Position numbers and translations under genes: made by a program. From a virus, in IMG/VR virus record IMGVR_UViG_3300010399_000002, positions 32,001 through 96,000 of that record: 64,000 nucleotides of DNA, one strand, 5' to 3'. Under the pieces are notes generated by a model that saw only the letters and a list, made by a program, of their open reading frames with translations, ran no database searches and was not told where the DNA came from. Shown here one piece after another: positions 5,793 to 55,779 of this stretch; position 1 is the first letter of the stretch, and every line of letters begins with the position of its first letter.

Positions 5793-7010
5793 CTATTTCC
5801 TCACCTTCTTCTTGACTACCTTCTTCTTGGGAGGCTCCTCTTCCTCGTCGTCTTCTTCCGACTCTTCTTCCGGTTCCTCTTCTTCCTCGTCCTCTTCTTC
5901 GTCCTCGTCCTTAGCTACCTTCTTTTTTGGCTTCGGACCGGGTTTCTTTTTCTTGGGAGGCTCTTCCTCTTCTTCATCTTCTTCTTCGTCTTCTTCGGGT
6001 TCCTCTTCTTCCTCGTCCTCTGACTCTTCGTCTTCCGGCTCAGGTTTCTTTTTCTTCTTTACTGGTTTCTTCTTGGACAGAGGCTCTTCCTCATCTTCTT
6101 CATCCTCATCTTCGTCTTCTTCTGGTTCCTCTTCCTCGTCCTCTGACTCTTCGTCTTCCTCCTCGTCCTTAGCTACCTTCTTTTTTGGCTTCGGACCGGG
6201 TTTCTTTTTCTTGGGAGGCTCTTCCTCTTCTTCATCTTCTTCTTCGATTTCTTCCTCACTCTCGTCTTCTTCTTCGTCTTCTTCTGGCTCAGGTTTGGCC
6301 TTACCTTTCACTTTCTTCTTGGACTTGTCATCTTCGTCTTCGTCTAAATCTTCGGTGTCTACATCACGACCGTAATACGCGGCCTTCTGCACTTCCTCGT
6401 CGTAGGCATCGATGAGATTGTCGATAGGCTTCAACGACGCCATAATGGTCTTCGGAACGGCAGACGGATCGTCGTCCGGCTCGATGGTCCCGTACCGAGT
6501 GTTCTTCCAATCCGTACCAGTACGAGACAGGTTGATATTGCGACCCTTCTTAGCATCACTGTAGTCCTTCTTTGTACTGGACAGCAAAGCCAACACCGCA
6601 GTACTGAGAGATCGAGCTCCGCCGGTGGATACAAACCAGAGCAACGGGCCGCGCCACTTATCGGAGGCCTGATCAAGATAGATAACTTGGACAACGAACT
6701 GTTCTTTCGGCGCGAGTGCTTTTGCGATATTGATCTTGGCCCGCTTCTTGGATTTCTCCAGTGCGGGAATGATCTCATCGCACAACCAGCACTCGCCTTC
6801 CTTGGTATCGAACTCCTTCCCGCAACGGGCCATCTTCTTATCCGGACCAACGTCGCGATGAACGAGATACTCTGTGTACGGGGCATATTCCGGCCCTCGC
6901 GGATCGGGAAGGATACGAAACGTGTTCTCTCCCTCAGTCAGTTTGTACGTTTTGCCTTGAGACTTCTCACGTACTCTGTCCTTCGCCTTGTCTTTCCAAC
7001 TACTGGCCAT
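5793..7010 (-). CDS. gp32-like single-stranded DNA-binding protein with a long charged low-complexity tail
   Basis: FRILP..H..C..C.LC zinc motif; GRNINLSRTG...TRY; position between UvsY-like and RecA genes. Confidence 0.8.
   Translation of the reverse strand: MASSWKDKAKDRVREKSQGKTYKLTEGENTFRILPDPRGPEYAPYTEYLVHRDVGPDKKMARCGKEFDTKEGECWLCDEIIPALEKSKKRAKINIAKALAPKEQFVVQVIYLDQASDKWRGPLLWFVSTGGARSLSTAVLALLSSTKKDYSDAKKGRNINLSRTGTDWKNTRYGTIEPDDDPSAVPKTIMASLKPIDNLIDAYDEEVQKAAYYGRDVDTEDLDEDEDDKSKKKVKGKAKPEPEEDEEEDESEEEIEEEDEEEEEPPKKKKPGPKPKKKVAKDEEEDEESEDEEEEPEEDEDEDEEDEEEPLSKKKPVKKKKKPEPEDEESEDEEEEEPEEDEEEDEEEEEPPKKKKPGPKPKKKVAKDEDEEEDEEEEEPEEESEEDDEEEEPPKKKVVKKKVRK
5911..6246. repeat. 258-nt-period internal duplication in the SSB tail
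   Basis: ttagctaccttcttttttggcttcggaccgggtttctttttcttgggaggctc occurs at 5911 and 6169 (PPKKKKPGPKPKKKVAK twice). Confidence 0.9.
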
Positions 7011-8188: not shown

Positions 8189-8458
8189 CTAATTTGCCTG
8201 GCCCAACCTGCGTACCTCAGCAGCCAATTCAAAATTTGCCTGGCCCAACCTGCGTACCTCAGCAGCCAATTCAAAAGCATCCAATTCTGGTGCGGAGAGA
8301 ACTGCTACCACCACTCCATTCTTCGTAATAGAAAAGCACTTTCCCATCTGAGCCTGTAGCAGAATGTCACCTGGAGTACGACGAAAATCCATTGCTGTAA
8401 TGGTCTCTTGTTGCCCAGTAAGATCTATACTTTTAGTCAAAGGCTTTCTCATCTGCAA
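8189..8458 (-). CDS. Phd/YefM antitoxin-fold protein
   Basis: ETITAMDFRRTPGDILLQAQMGKCFSITKNGVVVAVL matches the Phd N-terminal pattern. Confidence 0.65.
   Translation of the reverse strand: MQMRKPLTKSIDLTGQQETITAMDFRRTPGDILLQAQMGKCFSITKNGVVVAVLSAPELDAFELAAEVRRLGQANFELAAEVRRLGQAN
8191..8274. repeat. Perfect 42-bp tandem duplication
   Basis: aatttgcctggcccaacctgcgtacctcagcagccaattcaa twice, encoding FELAAEVRRLGQAN twice. Confidence 0.95.
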
Positions 8459-12759: not shown

Positions 12760-13110
12760 TTAGTACTTCTTGCCTCCCTCAGCTAGTCTGGCCTCTGTTG
12801 TATGATCTTTACGAACAGCATTGAAAGCCATCTTGCGCTCGTAGATCTCTTGAAGATTGATCTCATACGCCCCGGCTACATCAAAAATACGAATGAGAGT
12901 ATCTACAAGCTCTACGTCGAACATCTTATACTCCGGCAACTTGTCATCCTGCAAATCCTTACGATGACCTTCCATAGCCTCTGCTAACTCGGAGACCATT
13001 AACATCAACATCTCTCCGACATTACGCTGCAAAGGCTCTCCGGTAGCTGGATTACGCCACCACTTTTCATTTGCCTCGTGTACTTCTTCTGCGTACCCAT
13101 TCAAATTCAC
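12760..13110 (-). CDS. MazG-like all-alpha NTP pyrophosphohydrolase
   Basis: LMVSELAEAMEG.RK..ELVDTLIRIFD..KM.FN..R. Confidence 0.85.
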   Translation of the reverse strand: MNLNGYAEEVHEANEKWWRNPATGEPLQRNVGEMLMLMVSELAEAMEGHRKDLQDDKLPEYKMFDVELVDTLIRIFDVAGAYEINLQEIYERKMAFNAVRKDHTTEARLAEGGKKY

Positions 13111-13739
13111 TTTCCACCTCCTACGTAACCTAGAAACTCAGCTTTCACATCTGGCTTCTTGAAGCAACCTCGCAACGCGGTCGTGATGGTTGTAGCCTGC
13201 GCCTTCTTAACCCCACGTACGCTCATACAAGTATGAAGTGCTGAAATACACGCGCCGCAACCTTTTGGCTGCACCACCTTTTGAAACACGTCAACGATCT
13301 GACTGGTTAAAAGTTCTTGCAACTGTGGACGCTTACTCAACACATCTATTAAGCGACCTATCTTGGACAGGCCTACGAGCTTTTTTCCTGGAAGATAGGC
13401 GAAGTGAACGTGTCCTATGAACGGCAACAGATGATGGGCGCACCACGAAACGAACTCAACGTCTTTAACTATGACCATCTGATCGTACTGATGATTGGGG
13501 AAGCCTGTCACCTTTGTTATAGAACTCGATAGAACTGAGGCTGGATCTGCTCCCAACCCCATAAGCAACTCGTCTTCGTACATGCGCACAACACGATTGG
13601 GCGTATCGGCGACATGGGGTTCTAATTCTTGTGGTGCATCTGCGAGCATTAATCGTAGACCGCGACCTACCACCAAAGACCAATGCGTCCCGTGAGTCTC
13701 AATAACACTACTTGACTGCACTTTTTCTTGTCTTGGCAT
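13107..13739 (-). CDS. folE: GTP cyclohydrolase I
   Basis: DTPNRV; SWCAHHLLPF.G; GLSKIGR; RPQLQE; HTCMSVRGV. Confidence 0.95.
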   Translation of the reverse strand: MPRQEKVQSSSVIETHGTHWSLVVGRGLRLMLADAPQELEPHVADTPNRVVRMYEDELLMGLGADPASVLSSSITKVTGFPNHQYDQMVIVKDVEFVSWCAHHLLPFIGHVHFAYLPGKKLVGLSKIGRLIDVLSKRPQLQELLTSQIVDVFQKVVQPKGCGACISALHTCMSVRGVKKAQATTITTALRGCFKKPDVKAEFLGYVGGGK

Positions 13740-14457
13740 TGCGTTTTACCGTTCTCCTCAGCATCTTAACCACACTACCTGGATACTTACCTACATCACG
13801 ATTTGAAACTCGAACAACCGCGTAACCTGCTGACTCCCACAACAACGTAGCCTTCACCTTATGAGCTGCGCCACAACTCTGATCGCACTCCAAAATAACA
13901 TTGTACTCCGGTAAGTAAAAATCTGCAATCAATCCTTCTAGCAGAACCTGCGAACTATATCTTATATGTAATACGTAACGCAGAATCTTACGCATCACAA
14001 ACTCAGTTGGTGTAGGCTGGTGGCGGCGAACCTTGGCGTTAGCTAACAAACGCCTTCGACGTATAACTGGATCTTGCCAAGACCTGCGACGACCTCGGGT
14101 CTGCTTGGTACGATAACCCGGATCTTTCCAACGTTCTTGATTAGCTGAACGTGTGTTATCTGCATACTTGACTCGACGATCTGGATTGTTTGCCCAGAAA
14201 CGTTTGGAATTTTCAGACTGCATGGAACGATGCTTACGTGAATGGAACTTCCTAAACCACCTTTTCTTAAATCTTGGATCGCTTCTAACCTTGTGCATAC
14301 TCTTTGCGTGCTTAGCACAGTACGCGGGATCTTGCCAACGAGCCTGCATACTAGCTGACCGCTTAGAAGTAACCGAACGTAAACTTTTAAGGAGCTTGGA
14401 TCTAGACTTCGGATTGGACCAACGAGCCTTCATGGCCTTAGACCTATCGTAACTCAT
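13708..14457 (-). CDS. Basic helical-repeat + Vsr/DUF559-like endonuclease (HEG-like A)
   Basis: W.DP.YR repeats, then PTPTE..IRYSSQ..GLIADFYLPEYNVILECD..GYAVVR; ATG 14457 overlaps the upstream stop. Confidence 0.75.
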   Translation of the reverse strand: MSYDRSKAMKARWSNPKSRSKLLKSLRSVTSKRSASMQARWQDPAYCAKHAKSMHKVRSDPRFKKRWFRKFHSRKHRSMQSENSKRFWANNPDRRVKYADNTRSANQERWKDPGYRTKQTRGRRRSWQDPVIRRRRLLANAKVRRHQPTPTEFVMRKILRYVLHIRYSSQVLLEGLIADFYLPEYNVILECDQSCGAAHKVKATLLWESAGYAVVRVSNRDVGKYPGSVVKMLRRTVKRNAKTRKSAVK

Positions 14458-16693: not shown

Positions 16694-16945
16694 TTATTCT
16701 TCTAAAAAATAACCCGTACCTGGTTCTACTGCTATACAAAGCTTTCGTTTGCCGTGTACTACCTTATCTTGCTCCGCCTTAGCTGCAAGAATCTTAGCCT
16801 CTACTCGTTCCGGATGGTTCTCTACTTCTTCTGCTGGAAAAATTAGAATAGTGTACCCGGCACGATGTAAACGCTTACGCTCACTTACCGTCATAACACA
16901 ACCTTTCGCATCTGCAACAAACGCAGCTTCGCCTTGGACTTCCAT
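16694..16945 (-). pseudogene. Orphan C-terminal half of a DUF559-like domain (remnant or small gene)
   Basis: MEVQGE..KRLHRAGYTILIFPAEEVENHPERV; in-frame TAA a few codons upstream. Confidence 0.45.
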
Positions 16946-17598
16946 TGGCCTATACGAATTATCTTAACCGCAATATCTGGATGGTTAGAAACGTCGCGAT
17001 TTGAAATACGAATAACCGTGTAACCGGCCAACTCCCAAATCTTGGTATATTTACGCTTACTATCACTAAGATACTGGTCAACTTCTAGTATTGCATTGTA
17101 CTCTGGCAAATAGAAGTCTACGATCAATCCAACCAACAAAACTTGAAACCTGTACTTGATATTTAACCTTCGGAGAATGCGCTTGGTCTTTAACTCACTG
17201 GCAGTCGGACGGTGTCTATTTACCTTAGACTTTGCTAACATCTGACGATAGCGGCTCTTTGGATCTCGCCAAGACTGCTCTGAGGCTTTTGCTATCTTGC
17301 TACGTCGAATTGGAGACCTCAGTGCCTTAAGTAATCTTGCACTTACTGCAGGATCATTCCAAAGAGCTTTCAGACTTTTTCGCCTCTTTCTTTGCACTGC
17401 AGGACTCTGACCCGCCTGAAGCAGCCTGGCACGAGTCTGCGAATCAACCCACGACTGTCTGTGACTCTCCACCTGCCTATCCCTATAACTTGGATCTTGC
17501 CAAAGTTTACGAACGCTCTCTGACAACGTACTAGCCCTTTGTTTAGCTCGATACTCTGGATCTGCCCAACGCCTCTTTGCCGCATCAGATTTGTTCAT
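16891..17598 (-). CDS. Basic helical-repeat + Vsr/DUF559-like endonuclease (HEG-like B)
   Basis: RRWADPEYR, LWQDPSYR, LWNDP, SWRDP repeats; PTASE..IKYRFQ..GLIVDFYLPEYNAILEVD..GYTVIR. Confidence 0.78.
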   Translation of the reverse strand: MNKSDAAKRRWADPEYRAKQRASTLSESVRKLWQDPSYRDRQVESHRQSWVDSQTRARLLQAGQSPAVQRKRRKSLKALWNDPAVSARLLKALRSPIRRSKIAKASEQSWRDPKSRYRQMLAKSKVNRHRPTASELKTKRILRRLNIKYRFQVLLVGLIVDFYLPEYNAILEVDQYLSDSKRKYTKIWELAGYTVIRISNRDVSNHPDIAVKIIRIGQWKSKAKLRLLQMRKVVL

Positions 17599-17603
17599 AG
17601 TCT

Positions 17604-18581
17604 TTAAACCACACGAACACCTTCAAAGAACTCCCGTCTTGAAGCTAGCAAACTCGTCATCTCATAATCAGAACATAGACGAACAAATTCAAGATACCTT
17701 TTTCTCTTCTCGGCGTACGACATACACCTCAGCGTACCGCACTTGAGATATGCACGCAACTCGTACAGTTGCTTTTGAACCACCTCACGACAGTCTGATG
17801 GTAGCAACGAATAACCTGTATCTCGTGGAATGACCGCAAGCTGCCAACATTTGTGCACATTGTCCCAATGCTGTTCCAACTGCGGATACGCCTTCTTCAC
17901 CTGGGAAGTAAGTTTAGCAAATCTTTTTGTGGATGGAGTAACACCTGCTAGGATCATGGCACTAGCACGAGCCGGACCTATACCCGCAACTGACTTATAA
18001 TTATCACTGCTGTCCCCAGACAGAGCCTTGTACTCCGCCCATTGGTCTGGACGCAAACCGTGAGACTTGGCTAGATCGAAACTGGCAACAGCGACTGGAT
18101 TCTTGGGCAGTGGTCGAAGCACTCGTACCTTTTTGGAAATCAACTGGTAGAAGTCTGCATCTGTGGAGTAGATCCAAACACGGTTGACTGACTTGTGATC
18201 TTGGCACACCTGACTGAAGATACCTATGAGATCGTCCGCCTCGAGACCGTCAACCCTGAACTGCATGAAGCCCAGAACTTCGATGAATTTCTCTAGCACT
18301 GGCAACTGCATGAATACTACTGCTCGAGCTTCCTTTTGTTCTGGAGTACTCGCACGAGAAGCCTTGTAGGTACTAACGATCTTCTTGCGCCAGACAGATT
18401 GGCTGTCCCAACAGATGACTATCTCCGATGAGTACTTGGACATCAAAGCTCGAAGGCTAGACAAGAAGCCATAAATGATCCCAGTAGGAAAGGACTTGCC
18501 TTCAATTGTAGTACTGAGATTAAAAGCAAAACCACAACGATAAACTATGTTCATACCATCAACTAGTATTATGTCCTTCAA
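17604..18581 (-). CDS. 5'-3' exonuclease / flap endonuclease
   Basis: LVDGMN..YR; CWD; WRK...YKASR; EADDL; STDADF.QL; GDSSDN...V.GIG; TTG start with AGGTG Shine-Dalgarno. Confidence 0.93.
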   Translation of the reverse strand: MKDIILVDGMNIVYRCGFAFNLSTTIEGKSFPTGIIYGFLSSLRALMSKYSSEIVICWDSQSVWRKKIVSTYKASRASTPEQKEARAVVFMQLPVLEKFIEVLGFMQFRVDGLEADDLIGIFSQVCQDHKSVNRVWIYSTDADFYQLISKKVRVLRPLPKNPVAVASFDLAKSHGLRPDQWAEYKALSGDSSDNYKSVAGIGPARASAMILAGVTPSTKRFAKLTSQVKKAYPQLEQHWDNVHKCWQLAVIPRDTGYSLLPSDCREVVQKQLYELRAYLKCGTLRCMSYAEKRKRYLEFVRLCSDYEMTSLLASRREFFEGVRVV

Positions 18582-19369
18582 GCAACACCTCGTGAACGCA
18601 CAGAACTTATTGCCTGCTGTATAGTTGCAATCGCCTTGTCTGGATACTTTGTAACAGTATGATTACTGATTCGTACAACAACGTAACCTGCACGCTCTAA
18701 ACGCCTAGTCGCTAGACGTGTCCGCTTAGTCTGCTGCTGATCAACCTCTAACGCTATATTGTAATCGTACAGATAAAAATCGACTATAAGACCTGCAAGC
18801 AGAACTTGAGAATGATACCTAGTCTTCAAATTGTAACGAAGTATTCTACGCAGGCACTTCTCTGTTGGAGTAAGATTGCGTCTGTATGTAATTGCACGAG
18901 ACTGCAAACGCCTTAACCTAACAGACTCATCCTTCCAACTACTACGTAGACTTTTTGACTTGCGGGCCAACGTCTTAACGCCTCTACTGGCTTTGGCTTG
19001 ATTGGTGCGATAAACAGGATTAGTCCAACGTCTCTTTGCTGCTCTTGACTGTTTAATACGAACCGCAGGACTACTATTAGCTCGACTTAAAGCTGCGACC
19101 TGCGTTAGTCTGAACTGTGGATCTTGCCATAACTTTTTCATCTGAACTGATCTGTCTGCACGTACAATTGGATCTTTGTTTAACTCAATTGTTGCTTTAG
19201 CTTGCTTAGCTCTGTACTCTGGGCTCTGCCAACGCCTCTTAGCAGCACGATAGTTACTAATAGATCGCTTAGCTCGAACAACCGGATCTTTGTTGGCCTT
19301 CTGCTGCTTAGCTCTGTACTCAGGCCTTTTCCACTTTAGTCTCTGTGCTTCTGATCTGGTCACTAGCAA
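18578..19369 (-). CDS. Basic helical-repeat + Vsr/DUF559-like endonuclease (HEG-like C), inserted in the exonuclease 5' end
   Basis: Nine 13-21-aa repeat units; LTPTE..RYHSQ..GLIVDFYLYDYNIALEVD..GYVVVR. Confidence 0.8.
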   Translation of the reverse strand: MLVTRSEAQRLKWKRPEYRAKQQKANKDPVVRAKRSISNYRAAKRRWQSPEYRAKQAKATIELNKDPIVRADRSVQMKKLWQDPQFRLTQVAALSRANSSPAVRIKQSRAAKRRWTNPVYRTNQAKASRGVKTLARKSKSLRSSWKDESVRLRRLQSRAITYRRNLTPTEKCLRRILRYNLKTRYHSQVLLAGLIVDFYLYDYNIALEVDQQQTKRTRLATRRLERAGYVVVRISNHTVTKYPDKAIATIQQAISSVRSRGVA

Positions 19370-19407
19370 TCTCCAATCATACCGTCGACAAGAATGATGT
19401 CTTTCAT
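19363..19407 (-). pseudogene. Stranded 5' end of the exonuclease gene (MKDIILVDGM, then IGDC*)
   Basis: ATG AAA GAC ATC ATT CTT GTC GAC GGT ATG encodes the same 10 residues as the start of 17604..18581. Confidence 0.88.
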
Positions 19408-19565
19408 CTAAGCCTCTTCACCAAGCTCTGTCTGCACCACGAAACAACTCCAATTTCCTTCGCTGCACCGCACTCTCTGCACGAACGACCATTCCGAGCG
19501 CTGTATGAATTATGCGCAACAGCACTCGATAGACCGTGATCTTGTCTTCCGTACTCAACGTCACC

Positions 19566-19784
19566 TTAGTTCCTATCACCGTCGCCCAATACTAGATCTG
19601 CGTCTTCACTTCCGCAACCGGGAGAATCTGATTCTGCAACCGTGACCTTGTCGGTCTCGACGTACAACTGGTATAGTGCGATAGCCTTTCGTACCACTTG
19701 CCTCTGACTGATCTGTTGCTTCTCTGCCAACTTCTCAACCACCTTGGCGTCTTTGTTATTGAGCTGTACTGTGAATTGTGACAT
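19566..19784 (-). CDS. Ribbon-helix-helix (CopG-like) DNA-binding protein
   Basis: QFTVQL....KVVEKLA....ISQRQVVRKAI. Confidence 0.7.
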   Translation of the reverse strand: MSQFTVQLNNKDAKVVEKLAEKQQISQRQVVRKAIALYQLYVETDKVTVAESDSPGCGSEDADLVLGDGDRN

Positions 19785-19790
19785 GGGTCT

Positions 19791-20033
19791 CTACTCCTCG
19801 ATGTAAGTTGCTGTTAGATTTTTGTACTCCAAACTCGTCAAACGAAAACTAGTTCCTGGTACCGGCATAACCTTACCGCAATCACCCAAAAGCGTTGGAA
19901 CATCCAAAACTGGTTGGGTGTACCTCGGCGGTGGAGGCCAGTCCAACTCGATAACCTCAGTATGTCCGTTCAACCTCAACAAATGAGCTGCGCACTTTTT
20001 CTCAGACATCTTCCCTCCATGCCCAATGCACAA
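19791..20033 (-). CDS. Hypothetical protein
   Basis: ORF in operon orientation. Confidence 0.45.
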   Translation of the reverse strand: MCIGHGGKMSEKKCAAHLLRLNGHTEVIELDWPPPPRYTQPVLDVPTLLGDCGKVMPVPGTSFRLTSLEYKNLTATYIEE

Positions 20034-20165
20034 TCATGAAATCGTACAAAGCCTTTTCATCACTGTCGTACGTGTAACCTTTTTGTGCTGCTGAAGCCTT
20101 TTGCCTGCGGATGGCCTCTTCCTCAGTAATCTTCACTGCTGGTTCTCCGCACTCGTTGTAGACTA

Positions 20166-20363
20166 TCATAAAGACTCCAATCTAGGAATATCAGTAACCC
20201 TTGGAGGATCTTCACCTTCAAACCACTCGATAATCTCACCACAATCCGGTACTGGACATATCAGCTCTGCGTAGTCCGTATCTTCTGGCATGTCGTTTGC
20301 AAAAACTATTAGACCGCAACCATGGCACCGCTTCTCGATATACATATCACACCTGAGCTGCAT
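20166..20363 (-). CDS. Small zinc-ribbon protein
   Basis: CHGC..CPVPDC. Confidence 0.5.
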   Translation of the reverse strand: MQLRCDMYIEKRCHGCGLIVFANDMPEDTDYAELICPVPDCGEIIEWFEGEDPPRVTDIPRLESL

Positions 20364-21300
20364 ACGCTAACATGGTCATCCGCAAATGCCAACTGAATTT
20401 GACAACTCGTTGCAACACTGTGAGCAACGACTTATCTGAAAGTTCATCGGCCTGTTTACGACTCTTAGGTGGTGGCCAGCACACTAACACATTGTATCTC
20501 TTGTCCAACTGTTCTGCGGTTTGTACTGTGGCTTCGATCCCAACTCGATCCGGATCTGGATATAGGATGATTCTCTTGCACTCGACCTCGATCAATTGTG
20601 ACAACATGGTCTCGGTCAACGTGTGACCCAACATGGCCAATGAACGAGTAGTTCTCCACGCCTCCGGCAATTCACTCATTGTGCGCTCAATGGCTAGAGC
20701 CTTGAAGATACCCTCAGCGATACAAACCGTAGGGGCTGTTGGAACGTTGTTTAGACCCCACAGGTACTTCTCGCCTGGAGAATTGAGGTATTTGATTGGG
20801 CTCCTACCGCTAAAGTCACGGCACACCAGACCTTTTAACTCGTCCTCGTAGAAGATTGGGAAGACTATCCTGTACGCATATCTGCCACTGAGAGACACGC
20901 CTACATGATGCTTTCTTAACAAGTCCTTACTTACCCGACGAGCGTACATGTACTTCTGAGCTTTGCGTACCAACGGATCACTGTCTTCTCTATGCAGCAA
21001 CTGAAAATCGATGGGCAGTTTAACTGGACCTTGTTTCTTGGCCTCTACGGTATCTTGTTCAAGACCACCACCTTGGATAGCTAATTCTCCTAGAACCAGT
21101 TTGGGTGCATCGCGCCCTACGCGCCAGTCACAGTTAAAACAGTGTCCCTGACCCGTAACGATATTGACACCCAAACGGAACTTGATGTCTTCACCTTCCC
21201 CACGCTCGGCACAGAACGGACAACACATCCAGATCTCTTGAGGATCTCCAGTACGCTTGTACCTGATCCCACTGGCTATAAGTGTCTCAAGGAAAGTCAT
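20347..21300 (-). CDS. DnaG-type DNA primase
   Basis: CPFC..HCFNC zinc finger; RIVFPI; KYLN; AEG; DPDRVG (TOPRIM). Confidence 0.9.
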   Translation of the reverse strand: MTFLETLIASGIRYKRTGDPQEIWMCCPFCAERGEGEDIKFRLGVNIVTGQGHCFNCDWRVGRDAPKLVLGELAIQGGGLEQDTVEAKKQGPVKLPIDFQLLHREDSDPLVRKAQKYMYARRVSKDLLRKHHVGVSLSGRYAYRIVFPIFYEDELKGLVCRDFSGRSPIKYLNSPGEKYLWGLNNVPTAPTVCIAEGIFKALAIERTMSELPEAWRTTRSLAMLGHTLTETMLSQLIEVECKRIILYPDPDRVGIEATVQTAEQLDKRYNVLVCWPPPKSRKQADELSDKSLLTVLQRVVKFSWHLRMTMLAYAAQV

Positions 21301-22175
21301 TGGCTACCACTTTTTGATAACTTTAGTAACTTACGCAATCGTGCTTCTGACCTAGCTAAACCTCGAATCAACTGCTCACTTGTAAAACGAGCGACGCGAT
21401 ACTTGTACGCACGAAGAGTTAAATCTCGAAACGCATCTCTACGCTGATTATCTGGGTGATTATGTCTCGGCCCGTCGCACTCAATGACCAATCGAGACAA
21501 AGGAACTAGAAAATCAACTATGCAATTATGTAGTACAACTTGACACTGATACTTAACGCCTAATCTGTTCAACAGATACGACATTATATCTTCTATACCC
21601 GTTGGACGCTTACGCATAGACCTGGCAAAGCAAGTCAGAAAATACTTACGCCAATCTGGATCGTTCCACTGTTCCTTGTGAGTGCGACTTTGATTTATTT
21701 TGACCTTCTCTTTGTAACCAGGTCTCTTCCAACGAGCTGTAACTTCATGCCGAACTGCATCACTTATACGCTGACGATAAACTGGATCTCTCCAATTACG
21801 TTTACCGAGCTTGGACTTCTTATGCCTTGTTCTTGGATCTGCTAGAACCTTTCTCATCCTAACAGATTGTTCGGCCTTGCGTTCTGGTGTCCAGTACTTT
21901 TTAATGACCGCAGACTGCCTTAACTTGTAATCCGAAGTACGGGACTTTACTATAGCTGCTATCTGACTTTCACGCCAAACTGGATCTTTCCACAGAGCCT
22001 TCATGGCAGCTACATGACTCTTACGCCCTGAAACTGAACTGAGCTTCGCCTTTGAAATAGCTGCACCTCGAGCGGCCTTCCAACTTGGATCTGCCCAAAG
22101 CAATTTCATCTTAGCAATCTGATTACGACGACCTTGACGTGTCACCTCACCGGACTTACGTCTCTTCTTCTTCAT
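21297..22175 (-). CDS. Basic helical-repeat + Vsr/DUF559-like endonuclease (HEG-like D)
   Basis: W.DP.WR/YR repeats; PTGIE..IVDFLV..LVIECDGPRH..RRDAFRD..L..YRVARF (canonical DUF559 pattern). Confidence 0.82.
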   Translation of the reverse strand: MKKKRRKSGEVTRQGRRNQIAKMKLLWADPSWKAARGAAISKAKLSSVSGRKSHVAAMKALWKDPVWRESQIAAIVKSRTSDYKLRQSAVIKKYWTPERKAEQSVRMRKVLADPRTRHKKSKLGKRNWRDPVYRQRISDAVRHEVTARWKRPGYKEKVKINQSRTHKEQWNDPDWRKYFLTCFARSMRKRPTGIEDIMSYLLNRLGVKYQCQVVLHNCIVDFLVPLSRLVIECDGPRHNHPDNQRRDAFRDLTLRAYKYRVARFTSEQLIRGLARSEARLRKLLKLSKSGSQ

Positions 22176-23520
22176 AACTTCGAGAACTAACCTCCTCACG
22201 CATCTTTTTAATGGTAGCGTCTCTATCGTATATAAGCATTCTCTCCTTATCACTCATAATGTTGCAACCCACATGCTGTTTGGTAAACTTAGACGCTGCT
22301 ACCCACAAGTACAAACCGTTTTCGTCGTCCCAATCGCCTTGCCCGAGCGATATGGCTAACGTTACCTTGCGGACCTTACTGATGTCTTCTGCAAGACGAT
22401 CACCTGATAAGATCTTGAATGACTCCGTTCCGCGTTGTGTCTGAGCTGCTGTCCAGAGTATCACTTGCTTGCGGGCTGCGAATTGACGTAACTCACGGTA
22501 CACGTCGGCAAACTCCATACGTCGATCGGCTTGCTTCTTCGATGGACGAATCTCATCATCGTAGTCGATAATCACAACATCGGCACTGAAGCCTTGACCG
22601 CGCTCTTTTTCCCATGCGGCTTCGATCATCGGCACACTGAATCCGGACTCCGTACCATCAATGATCTTCAAACGTCCTTTGAGCAGGCGCTTGTACAACA
22701 TGAACCTGTATCTCAAAGTCTTCGTCATGGTCGTCAACTTCGAATACGGCAAATTGGCAACCGCGGCGTCGAACCTATCCTCAACATCGTCCTGAGGATC
22801 TTCGAGTGTAATAAATATGACATTCAGTCTCTGAAGAGTGTATGCCAAAGCCAACCAAAGCAAAGTGAGAGACTTCCCACGCTTGTATGGTGCTATGAAA
22901 AGACCAAGATGACCTGGACCTATGTTCCTGATAAGAAGGTCTAGTGGATCTATCAGGAACAATGGATGCTTCCGATCTTTACTGCTATCTCGACGGGCGA
23001 TGCGGACTTCCAACTCTTTGTTACTGAAGAACTCCGTGGACCGATATGGATCTTTGGAAAAGACATCCACGGCCCCGCGACAGATATCTAACCATTTCTC
23101 ATCGGATAGCTGACCTTTGGCTTGCAAATCTACGATCTCTTCGATGGCTGCTGCCTTGGACTTCTCACGCTTGAACTGCACCACTTTGTCGAGCAGTGAA
23201 TCTGCAGCCAGGATCTTCTTGCGACGCAGGCCTTGTCCGTACTCGGTTAACGAAGTCCTGAATGAATCTTTGGCTCGTGATGATCTGCAATAGTCGAGTA
23301 TCTCCGTAGACAGGAGCTTTCCCAACGGGTGCTTGTACTTCTGGTAGTAGTCTAATGCTAACTGAACGAGTATCCACCTTTCCCGACCGTACTCATGGCC
23401 GTTTCTTGGACGGAAGTCTGCAGCAGTCAACAAATGACTGGATGCAATCAAGAACCTCTTGTCCTTGATCAGAAGAGCTGCAAGCAAATCCTGAAACTCG
23501 CTATTGTCGAAATATGTCAT
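22156..23520 (-). CDS. DnaB-like replicative helicase
   Basis: APYKRGKS; FITLE; IIDYDD; WTAAQTQR; AEDISK. Confidence 0.92.
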   Translation of the reverse strand: MTYFDNSEFQDLLAALLIKDKRFLIASSHLLTAADFRPRNGHEYGRERWILVQLALDYYQKYKHPLGKLLSTEILDYCRSSRAKDSFRTSLTEYGQGLRRKKILAADSLLDKVVQFKREKSKAAAIEEIVDLQAKGQLSDEKWLDICRGAVDVFSKDPYRSTEFFSNKELEVRIARRDSSKDRKHPLFLIDPLDLLIRNIGPGHLGLFIAPYKRGKSLTLLWLALAYTLQRLNVIFITLEDPQDDVEDRFDAAVANLPYSKLTTMTKTLRYRFMLYKRLLKGRLKIIDGTESGFSVPMIEAAWEKERGQGFSADVVIIDYDDEIRPSKKQADRRMEFADVYRELRQFAARKQVILWTAAQTQRGTESFKILSGDRLAEDISKVRKVTLAISLGQGDWDDENGLYLWVAASKFTKQHVGCNIMSDKERMLIYDRDATIKKMREEVSSRSYEEEET

Positions 23521-23526
23521 TCACCC

Positions 23527-23823
23527 TTACCAACGAATCTTCATTGTACGAAGTTCTTCGTCCATGGCCATACGTTCTAAACCCGTTAACTTTGGCTCGG
23601 CTTCTTTGGCACATAACGAACGAACTGGTGGTAGCTGCAAAGTACTACTCAACTGGATCTTTTTGGAAATTATATGTTGGCCGCAGTCCAAACACGCTAT
23701 CTCATCCATTCCCGCACCTGAACAAATTGCCTTTCCGTCAGAACCGTTCCTTTGGCACTTGAACACATTCGACGTATTCCTATGCCTGCAACCAAAGAAA
23801 AACTGAAATAGTTTATCTAGCAT
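23527..23823 (-). CDS. Hypothetical Cys-containing protein (start probably MLDKLF)
   Basis: FFGC.H..CLDCG. Confidence 0.5.
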   Translation of the reverse strand: MLDKLFQFFFGCRHRNTSNVFKCQRNGSDGKAICSGAGMDEIACLDCGQHIISKKIQLSSTLQLPPVRSLCAKEAEPKLTGLERMAMDEELRTMKIRW

Positions 23824-23839
23824 CTCGCCACTCCTTTTC

Positions 23840-24073
23840 TCATTGTTGATCGTAGAAATGGTCACATTCCTGACAGAAGAAACTTTGTGGCAGTTTTTCG
23901 GACGGATGGTAGAAAGCCTCAACCTGATGACCGTCTGGACAGATTGCCACTAAACGAATTGTACGGAGCCTCATAACTGGATCTCGCGATGCCTCGTTAG
24001 TCTTATCGCCACGAAAGATCTGCATCTGAGCACCGGCGGTACATTGGATGACTTCCGATGGTGTAGTACTCAC
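23840..24073 (-). CDS. Hypothetical zinc-ribbon protein
   Basis: CPDGH..CQEC. Confidence 0.45.
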   Translation of the reverse strand: MSTTPSEVIQCTAGAQMQIFRGDKTNEASRDPVMRLRTIRLVAICPDGHQVEAFYHPSEKLPQSFFCQECDHFYDQQ

Positions 24074-45590: not shown

Positions 45591-46229
45591 CTAATGATAA
45601 AACTTAGCCCTGCAAACCACTCTCGCGATCTCCAAAGCTACTTGATCTGAATGGTGCTTGACCATATGGTTGGAAACACGAAGCAACTTGTAACCGGCGT
45701 CCTTGAGCCTCTTGGTACGAAGCACGTTGCGATCTGTCCCTACGCAATCGTCAACCTCCAACGCAACTTTGTACTCGTACAAATAAAAATCGACGATCAC
45801 TCCAACAAGTGGCACTTGAAACCTGTATCTTATATGCAACTCTTGGAGGATCTCTTTTGTCAGAGACTCTGATAGCGTTGGATTGCGTCTGTAAAATTTT
45901 GCTTGGGACCTGTCTAATCTAGCTTGGTGTTCTCTACTCTTTACCTTACCGCGATGCGCTGCACTCATCTTACGCTTAGACGCCGATGAATGCTTCTTAC
46001 CCAAATGCGCTGCACGCATCTTTTGTATGGATACAGCACTGTGTCTCTTGCCGAAAATGGCTTCGCTTAGCTTTTTCCTGGTAGCAGCTGAAACCACTTT
46101 TCCACGATGAGTCTCACTAATAGCTTTGCGATGCTCAACAGAAATCAACTTACCGCGATGCACTTCACTCATCTTGGCACGGTACTCGGGATTCTCCCAA
46201 CGCTTCTTTAACTCTCCGGATCTGTTCAC
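45591..46229 (-). CDS. NUMOD3-repeat + Vsr/DUF559-like endonuclease (HEG-like E)
   Basis: 17-aa (R/K)K(M/L/I)S..H.GK..S repeats; PTLSE..IRYRFQ..GVIVDFYLYEYKVALEVD..GYKLLR. Confidence 0.8.
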   Translation of the reverse strand: MNRSGELKKRWENPEYRAKMSEVHRGKLISVEHRKAISETHRGKVVSAATRKKLSEAIFGKRHSAVSIQKMRAAHLGKKHSSASKRKMSAAHRGKVKSREHQARLDRSQAKFYRRNPTLSESLTKEILQELHIRYRFQVPLVGVIVDFYLYEYKVALEVDDCVGTDRNVLRTKRLKDAGYKLLRVSNHMVKHHSDQVALEIARVVCRAKFYH

Positions 46230-55156: not shown

Positions 55157-55779
55157 AACGCCTCCCTAAGCACACTCGTTAGTGATTTGTACGGCCACAA
55201 CTTAAGAGCTGATTCCTTCGAAGTGTTTATAACCTCGACTCCGGCTTCTTTCAACGGCGCAACAGCGTTCTGAAAAAGTGGGAGCATGGTGTGCTCAAAC
55301 ACATTGGCATATCCAGCCTGCGTCTGTCTCACGTGCTGGTGCCCGGGGTGCCAATGTGTTCTGCCGTCGACCACTCGCATGTCTACACCTAACAGCACGA
55401 TGCGCTTGACACCGAAATGAAACGCTACCTGCATGGACTGGTACGTTCCGTTGGCTCCGGTATACAATGCACCTGGATCGTTGCTCCAGCCGATCTGTCC
55501 GGCGTTTCTCAAACGCTTAACTGCACCATCGACCTCCACCGTTGTTACGATGTATCGTCCTTCGAATGACTCCATCACTCGCTGTTTATGGTACATGTAC
55601 CATTTGGAATCTGCGAAATACAACACATCGGCGTGTGGAAAGATCTGATAACTGTTGTTGATGGCAATGACTCGACGACCAAATAGTGGACGAAGATCTT
55701 CTCGAGCTAATGAAGGACCTCCACCTAGTATGAATGCTGTCTCACCGGACCACTCTGGCGGAACCACCCAATAGGACAT
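55153..55779 (-). CDS. DUF115/Maf-like (sialyltransferase-like Rossmann) transferase, paralog 1
   Basis: ILGGGPSL..VIAINN..ADVLYFAD..GVKRIVLLGVDM..V.VINTS. Confidence 0.75.
   Translation of the reverse strand: MSYWVVPPEWSGETAFILGGGPSLAREDLRPLFGRRVIAINNSYQIFPHADVLYFADSKWYMYHKQRVMESFEGRYIVTTVEVDGAVKRLRNAGQIGWSNDPGALYTGANGTYQSMQVAFHFGVKRIVLLGVDMRVVDGRTHWHPGHQHVRQTQAGYANVFEHTMLPLFQNAVAPLKEAGVEVINTSKESALKLWPYKSLTSVLREAL

Follow-up and report, generated by a model that had tools for sequence, protein, structure and literature searches.

Endonuclease genes that supply a new end to the gene they enter have been described in yeasts and in fungal mitochondria. Here we compare these systems with a phage locus in which an endonuclease gene, HEG C, stands between two differently spelled copies of the first ten codons of a 5'-3' exonuclease gene. 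The locus lies in a stretch of 64,000 nucleotides (the window), which is bases 32001-96000 of the virus record IMGVR_UViG_3300010399_000002 (IMG/VR; 114,732 bp, with direct terminal repeats) and which occurs in two soil metagenome runs, both of DNA, and in no listed RNA run. With a probability of roughly 65%, we consider the arrangement to be an end-replacing homing cassette, the 5'-end mirror image of the yeast WHO elements and of the fungal mitochondrial endonuclease open reading frames (ORFs).

In yeasts of the genera Torulaspora and Lachancea, WHO elements lie at FBA1, the gene for aldolase. The unit is made up of an endonuclease gene plus a resistant FBA1 3' end, the old end being displaced, and its mechanism has been shown experimentally (Coughlan et al. 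2020, PMC7282813; Osborne et al. 2026, bioRxiv 10.64898/2026.08.13.744650). Endonuclease ORFs of fungal mitochondria make 'gene hybrids' in atp6 of Allomyces macrogynus and in atp6, atp9, cox2 and nad3 of Glomus (Beaudet et al. 2013, PMC3630166, citing Paquin et al. 1994). Among phages, the T4-like free-standing homing endonucleases (seg, mob) are intron-free and propagate by cleaving alleles that lack the endonuclease, the flanks being co-converted; where phage endonuclease genes lie within coding regions, the same review describes them only as gene-splitting insertions (nrdA, gene 39/60, gene 43) (PMC2988022). We found no published phage case of a duplicated or re-spelled gene end beside a homing endonuclease, and our literature searches gave organellar and yeast cases only. 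In the mobA/gene 60 cassette, reportedly described by Bonocora et al. in 2011, extra sequence is said to keep the invaded gene functional.

Layout of the phage locus and comparison to known elements

All coordinates are window positions, and the feature lies wholly on the minus strand, as do 101 of the 107 ORFs (at least 120 aa, kept after overlap filtering). Read on this strand, the order is a stub, the endonuclease gene and the intact exonuclease gene. The stub ORF (19363-19407) has 14 codons and begins with copy U (19378-19407), the displaced original first ten codons of the exonuclease, ATG AAA GAC ATC ATT CTT GTC GAC GGT ATG (MKDIILVDGM), which is preceded by a GAGG Shine-Dalgarno (19413-19416) 5 nt before the ATG at 19407. 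Copy U is followed by ATT GGA GAT TGC (IGDC) and then by TAG (19365-19363), with a TGA directly behind. The last G of this TAG is also the first base of the GTG start of HEG C (TAGTG overlap). HEG C (18578-19363) encodes 261 aa, in agreement with the public gene call P0072 (261 aa from GTG 19363), and its GGAG Shine-Dalgarno (19371-19374) is placed 7 nt before the GTG, within the tail codons of the stub. Inside the 3' end of the endonuclease gene, an AGGTG Shine-Dalgarno (18586-18590) stands 4 nt before a TTG (18581-18579), which the endonuclease stop TGA (18580-18578) overlaps as TTGA. This TTG opens copy D (18552-18581), the replacement first ten codons, TTG AAG GAC ATA ATA CTA GTT GAT GGT ATG, continuing AAC ATA GTT TAT CGT, and with it the exonuclease / flap endonuclease gene (17604-18581, 325 aa from the TTG). 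An earlier note on this DNA had described the shared peptide MKDIILVDGM with 7 of 10 codons differing and no change of protein, the IGDC stub with its stop, the AGGTG in the endonuclease 3' end and the TTGA overlap; all of these could be read directly on the minus strand.

We compared this layout to the end-replacing elements. An endonuclease gene is flanked by the complete host gene on one side and by a displaced piece of its end on the other, in mirror orientation as it is the 5' end that is replaced, and both ends encode the same protein in diverged DNA. The nuclease is DUF559/Vsr-like and not homologous to WHO/HO, LAGLIDADG or GIY-YIG proteins. As in the WHO elements, the unit couples an endonuclease gene to a substitute end of the host gene, and on its far side the native end persists as a displaced fragment; there is neither intron nor intein, the host gene is whole and the target region is diversified. 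Resistance to the own enzyme by means of the replacement end has been shown for WHO, whereas in the phage cassette it would be expected. The differences are that the 3' end is replaced in yeast and the 5' end in the phage; that WHO enzymes are LAGLIDADG/intein-like proteins with a zinc finger, in contrast to a Vsr/DUF559-like nuclease with helical repeats in HEG C; and that WHO resides in a eukaryotic nuclear genome with separate transcription, as opposed to a single phage operon with stop/start overlaps. In addition, cleavage and allele specificity have been shown for WHO, whereas for HEG C they are predictions.

The fungal mitochondrial cases are similar in that an endonuclease ORF has entered coding sequence and brought a foreign version of the gene end that it displaced, a native relic being kept, and in that the copies have diverged in DNA with near-identical protein (63.5% DNA identity in Glomus atp6; PMC3630166). 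There, however, it is the carboxy-terminal end that is replaced, the ORF is often fused in frame, the cases are organellar, and the enzymes are of the LAGLIDADG or GIY-YIG type. Furthermore, the foreign origin was shown there against sister species, whereas the phage cassette has no sister genomes. The published phage cases lie between genes, split a gene into two polypeptides or involve translational bypass, and the review has no duplicated and re-spelled start (PMC2988022). Judged by analogy, the phage cassette would work like the end-replacing elements and is not a member of them by descent. It differs from them in the 5' end, in the nuclease family and in the operon-style translational linkage, the principle of end replacement being already known.

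If this comparison holds, a selfish endonuclease gene can occupy a conserved replication/repair gene in a phage by start replacement, with no intron, intein or gene splitting, and the principle that was proven in yeast (WHO) and is seen in fungal mitochondria would extend to phages, to 5' ends and to another nuclease family. The locus would also yield a sequence-level target prediction for a Vsr-like endonuclease and offer a natural test case for termination-reinitiation coupling over three ORFs.

The two gene starts, the exonuclease and the endonuclease

Copies U and D agree in 10 of 10 residues and in 23 of 30 bases. Of the seven differences, six are at third positions and one is at the opening base of the start codon; all are silent or the exchange of ATG for TTG as start. 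The block of similarity comprises 31 nt, from (A/T)TGAA to GGTATGA, and stops before either flank; its longest identical run is the 7 nt GGTATGA at the right ends. When seven random substitutions were placed in 30 nt, the peptide and start codon were left intact in only 2 of 2,000,000 simulations. The 30 nt hold nine positions that can change silently, and U and D differ at seven of them. Two independent encodings of the peptide at the codon usage of the genome would be expected to differ at 5.4 positions, with a probability of 0.22 for seven or more. The divergence at silent sites is hence fully saturated, and there is no DNA similarity beyond what the peptide demands. As none of the differences is non-silent and seven of the nine silent positions have changed, both copies appear to have evolved as working gene starts, and divergence that is both silent-only and saturated argues that D is not a recent duplicate of U. 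Since U has acquired no non-silent change, it would have stopped being the gene start only recently. Under genome codon usage the two copies are 0.22 log-likelihood units apart, which is uninformative.

In order to see how unusual this arrangement is, we scanned the genome for 8-residue peptides repeated within 3 kb. U and D are the sole pair that flanks an endonuclease gene; the other pairs are low-complexity repeats, exact tandem DNA repeats or paralogue pairs. Aligning flank against flank for the five endonuclease paralogues of the phage gave a score above that of shuffles for HEG C only.

We then used base composition to estimate how far the imported sequence may reach. The G/C content at third codon positions (GC3) of HEG C is 0.356, the second lowest of 118 ORFs, compared to a genome mean of 0.526 (sd 0.075). 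After the start codon, 3 of 9 codons end in G or C in copy D and 5 of 9 in copy U, the latter being like the genome average. The first 25 codons of the exonuclease gene have a GC3 of 0.24, within the lowest 1.4% of 1146 windows, and no other gene has such a first window. With the endonuclease and exonuclease genes concatenated, a two-state change-point model placed the GC3 change best at exonuclease codon 28, with a log-likelihood ratio (LLR) of 7.7; a change at codon 11 gave 4.65, and one at the gene boundary 4.56. Past codon 27 the GC3 of the exonuclease matches the genome. The A/T-ending tract thus delimited covers exonuclease codons 1-27 (18501-18581), and only 3 of codons 4-27 in it end in G or C. 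By composition alone, with third positions that are genome-like in U and endonuclease-like in D and codons 11-27, the displaced end may be the native one and the replacement end foreign. Because the endonuclease-like, AT-rich third positions reach to about codon 27, the imported piece is probably longer than the visible repeat; modest and post hoc evidence thus points to an imported tract of the endonuclease gene and about 27 exonuclease codons, with the rest of the gene resident.

These results modify two claims of the earlier note. The N-terminus had been called recoded; the silent divergence stands, and is saturated, although it would better be put down to import from a diverged allele and/or to selection for difference. 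The target had been predicted as the codons of U joined to AAC ATA GTT TAT CGT; as the AT-rich third positions run to about codon 27, the right half of that sequence is possibly imported and may not represent the naive allele.

The host gene is a real 5'-3' exonuclease gene with matches to PF02739 (E 4.8e-33, 114.6 bits compared to a cut-off of 34.3) and PF01367 (E 5.4e-11, 43.3 bits compared to a cut-off of 40), and HEG C stands after its codon 10, in accordance with the insertion into the exonuclease start that had been proposed. Its closest relatives in the protein collection are 33-37% identical and have the N-termini MKDIVLVDGMN or MKxxVLVDGMN. Asp8, the N-terminal metal-binding residue of the h-h-D-G motif, is invariant in an alignment of 13 sequences; it lies within copy D and is encoded only if translation begins at TTG 18581. 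Because D restores the conserved N-terminus together with the invariant Asp8, as had also been proposed, we predict that D is coding and that the TTG must be the start. The public gene call P0001 (316 aa) starts at Met10 (ATG 18554), which both loses the catalytic Asp8 and conceals the duplication. Such cassettes may therefore be an annotation trap, in that a start call at Met10 removes the catalytic Asp.

HEG C is built of an N-terminal array of basic helical W-repeats and a C-terminal DUF559/Vsr-like nuclease domain. Residues 154-254 match Pfam DUF559 (PF04480, profile positions 2-108 of 109) with 43.2 bits, compared to a gathering cut-off of 20.6. The AlphaFold2 model (mean predicted local distance difference test score, pLDDT, of 85.6) has about eleven helices followed by an alpha/beta domain, the pLDDT of the nuclease domain being about 85-94. 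A sequence search of the PDB with HEG C gave no match. Ranks 1 and 2 in Foldseek are both 3r3p, the catalytic domain of I-Bth0305I (E 6.7e-5, target TM 0.80), with a root-mean-square deviation of 2.7 A over 99 columns on superposition; the DUF559-like 3hrl comes next and Vsr (1vsr) is also present. Profile match and predicted fold thus identify HEG C as a homing-endonuclease-like, DUF559/Vsr-like protein, which is what the ORF between the copies had been taken for. I-Bth0305I, the best fold match, is likewise built of two parts, with a DNA-binding N-terminal region ahead of a Vsr-like C-terminal domain, and it too is phage-borne (PMC3239194; PDB 3r3p). I-Bth0305I is, however, intron-encoded with NUMOD motifs, in contrast to the W-type basic helical repeats of HEG C. 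Mitoribosomal proteins of Tetrahymena and Toxoplasma and the FAST1-FAST2-RAP module of human FASTKD4 were also among the fold matches of HEG C.

The phage has five such endonuclease paralogues, 27-40% identical, co-oriented and packed between genes. The four besides HEG C lie between genes with no flank duplication; one of them, HEG B (16891-17598, minus strand), follows directly downstream of the exonuclease gene and is 37% identical to HEG C. Glu168, Asp195, Glu206 and Asp208 are invariant.

Proposed mechanism and alternatives

In the proposed end-replacing cassette, the mobile unit would have about 826 nt or more and would consist of the endonuclease ribosome-binding site, the endonuclease gene and a replacement exonuclease 5' end, of which 10 codons are seen as a repeat and which by composition probably has about 27. 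The unit would have entered after exonuclease codon 10 and pushed the resident start U upstream, where it would survive as the 14-codon stub with its original ribosome-binding site and ATG. The stub is probably a translated leader that hands ribosomes to the endonuclease start. Ribosomes would end the stub at TAG and restart at the overlapping GTG, then end the endonuclease at TGA and restart at the overlapping TTG, and three products would be made from one message with no splicing. A scan for promoters and terminators gave counts at shuffle level. HEG C would cut endonuclease-free alleles in the conserved first codons, and repair would copy the cassette from the occupied genome. The occupied genome would itself be left with no intact target, since U now runs into foreign sequence and almost every silent position is changed in D. 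Recombination between the repeats, with loss of the insert, would be disfavoured because of the divergence of U and D, whose longest shared run is 7 nt. I-Bth0305I tolerates most single substitutions in its target (PMC3239194), and a need for many silent changes would fit such tolerance. It is from this arrangement that we infer the coupling, the cleavage site, the resistance and the mobility.

A broader reading is possible, although we regard it as doubtful. Phages would have a third, splicing-free class of homing element, which enters the first codons of conserved genes with a re-spelled start, takes over the ribosome-binding site via the stub, makes translation of the host gene dependent on the endonuclease, and recurrently targets the D-G codons of flap endonucleases via unrelated endonuclease families. 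Because the weak TTG overlaps the endonuclease stop, translation of the host gene would depend on translating the endonuclease first. If this were true, silencing the parasite would silence the exonuclease, which would amount to a built-in addiction.

Several points weigh against the cassette reading. Comparative support is nil, as neither an endonuclease-free allele nor a second occupied genome was present in the collections searched. The best exonuclease relatives in the protein collection are 37% identical, and among 5.8 billion proteins HEG C matched itself, its own paralogue and one protein at 24%. As there is no close relative in any of these collections, target site, cleavage resistance and mobility remain predictions, and so do the coupling and the TTG start. 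Codon 28 is favoured over codon 11 as change point by a modest 3 log units, and this test was selected once the data had been seen. Finally, although HEG C has the Vsr-like fold of the EDxHD family, the composite Glu, Asp, His, Asp motif (PMC3239194) is not complete in it: the His and the last Asp of the DUF559/EDxHD motif, which I-Bth0305I has, are absent from HEG C and from three paralogues (A, B and E), the mapping onto I-Bth0305I residues being indirect, via the DUF559 alignment. The missing segments, G-x-x-H and D-x-x-R-D, are kept by paralogue D and by the outside relative P0074. Activity of HEG C, which is inferred from conservation, is therefore not assured, and the protein may be inactive or work differently.

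The collections were searched in several ways. A blastn search with 3.4 kb against 50,697 phage records gave no match, and tblastn of the exonuclease gave at most 60% identity everywhere. Scans of IMG/VR with the exonuclease, HEG C and a five-paralogue profile found nothing, a degenerate DNA pattern for MKDIILVDGM had 0 matches there, and scans of JGI metagenomes with the exonuclease and the HEG profile returned nothing. An exonuclease family profile gave 80 loci of at most 34% identity, none with an endonuclease match; an upstream copy of the N-terminus was present at 0 of 74 testable loci, a positive control being run. No relative near enough to compare alleles was found in the phage records, IMG/VR, the JGI metagenomes or the protein collection. 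In the T5-like phages KKP_3711 and T5, D14 is directly followed by the flap endonuclease gene with no insertion, and in 438 of 443 related records the query is matched at a single place over at least 80% of its length. The one exception sampled, the odd and partial T5-like record of Escherichia phage SUT_E420 (OQ990039.1 78581-79935), does not represent an endonuclease insertion. It has about 354 extra bases and a shortened D14 just upstream of the flap endonuclease gene, which could be an assembly problem or a local duplication.

The main alternative, which we consider unlikely, is that the locus is the scar of a single event, an illegitimate or microhomology-mediated recombination that brought in the endonuclease gene along with a foreign exonuclease gene, either all of it or its 5' part. 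The resident ten codons would then be a dead remnant and the layout a repair accident, and the endonuclease need not target the exonuclease gene. Such an event would be in accord with the GGTATGA shared at the right ends of the copies with no similarity past it, with the lack of any sign of mobility in the collections searched, with the other four paralogues lying between genes and having no duplications, and with the catalytic His and Asp being absent from HEG C. However, the compact overlaps of stub stop with endonuclease start and of endonuclease stop with exonuclease start keep three ORFs translatable, and the endonuclease ribosome-binding site is placed in the stub tail, 7 nt upstream of the GTG. 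U has no non-silent change, which suggests a functional start until recently, and the genome-like GC3 beyond codon 27 disfavours replacement of the whole exonuclease gene. Even such a scar would be able to home afterwards.

It is very unlikely that U is the true start and that the 826 nt separating it from codon 11 are excised, be it as a group I intron or as an intein, or skipped by the ribosome. Endonucleases of the I-Bth0305I family are often intron-encoded (PMC3239194), and the U start is the stronger one (ATG, with GAGG 5 nt upstream). However, a search of 8 kb against Rfam gave no match with an E value of 1 or below, and there is practically no non-coding room for a ribozyme core, with 14 nt between U and the endonuclease start and 0 nt between the endonuclease stop and D. 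The flanks of the junctions fold no better than shuffles (z of -0.46 and +0.93), and a conserved copy D with silent changes only would be purposeless if the transcript were spliced. We therefore rejected a group I intron. An intein, for which an in-frame and stop-free insertion is needed, was rejected as well, since the stub closes with TAG and then TGA and the stub, endonuclease and exonuclease are in three different frames. This is in line with the earlier note, which held that the gene is kept whole with no splicing.

That two strain variants of the exonuclease start were stitched around the endonuclease gene during assembly is hardly credible: the source is a soil metagenome assembly, but a Logan contig of 18,468 nt from the probable source run covers 18015-24000, including the whole arrangement, with 0 differences, identical pieces on both sides are present in a second soil run from a different study, and the reading frames and overlaps are exact. 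The contigs of the two runs showed no joint that skips the endonuclease and no variants, although contigs cannot show rare alleles.

Paralogues and other features of the window

The deletion of G-x-x-H and D-x-x-R-D is shared by the paralogues at 13708-14457, 16891-17598, 18578-19363 and 45591-46229 (minus strand). Possibly these four lack activity or rely on paralogue D in trans. Paralogue D (21297-22175, minus strand) lies between a DnaB-like helicase gene and a primase gene; it shares bases with both neighbours, at its stop with the primase ATG (ATGA) and at its likely start with the end of the helicase gene. At the counterpart position in T5, an HNH endonuclease gene, hegJ, is found between helicase D6 and primase. 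Paralogue A and the GTP cyclohydrolase I-like gene downstream of it (13107-13739) share 32 nt (13708-13739, minus strand), where the 3' end of the former covers the start of the latter; no duplicated flank was detected there.

Upstream of the stub, an ORF of 53 aa (19418-19579, minus strand) ends 10 nt before the stub ATG and occupies most of the 158-nt gap between a ribbon-helix-helix gene (19566-19784) and that ATG. Elsewhere in the window, two ORFs at 55779 and 56412 (minus strand), 633 nt apart, both start with MSYWVVPPEW and share further peptides with silent differences; this looks like a gene duplicated in tandem within a glycan gene cluster and not like an endonuclease cassette. At 8191-8274, 42 nt are duplicated exactly in tandem. 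A long repeat region at 5820-6290 has a periodicity of about 126-258 nt, and its minus strand encodes acidic and lysine-rich sequence (EEEEPPKKKK units).

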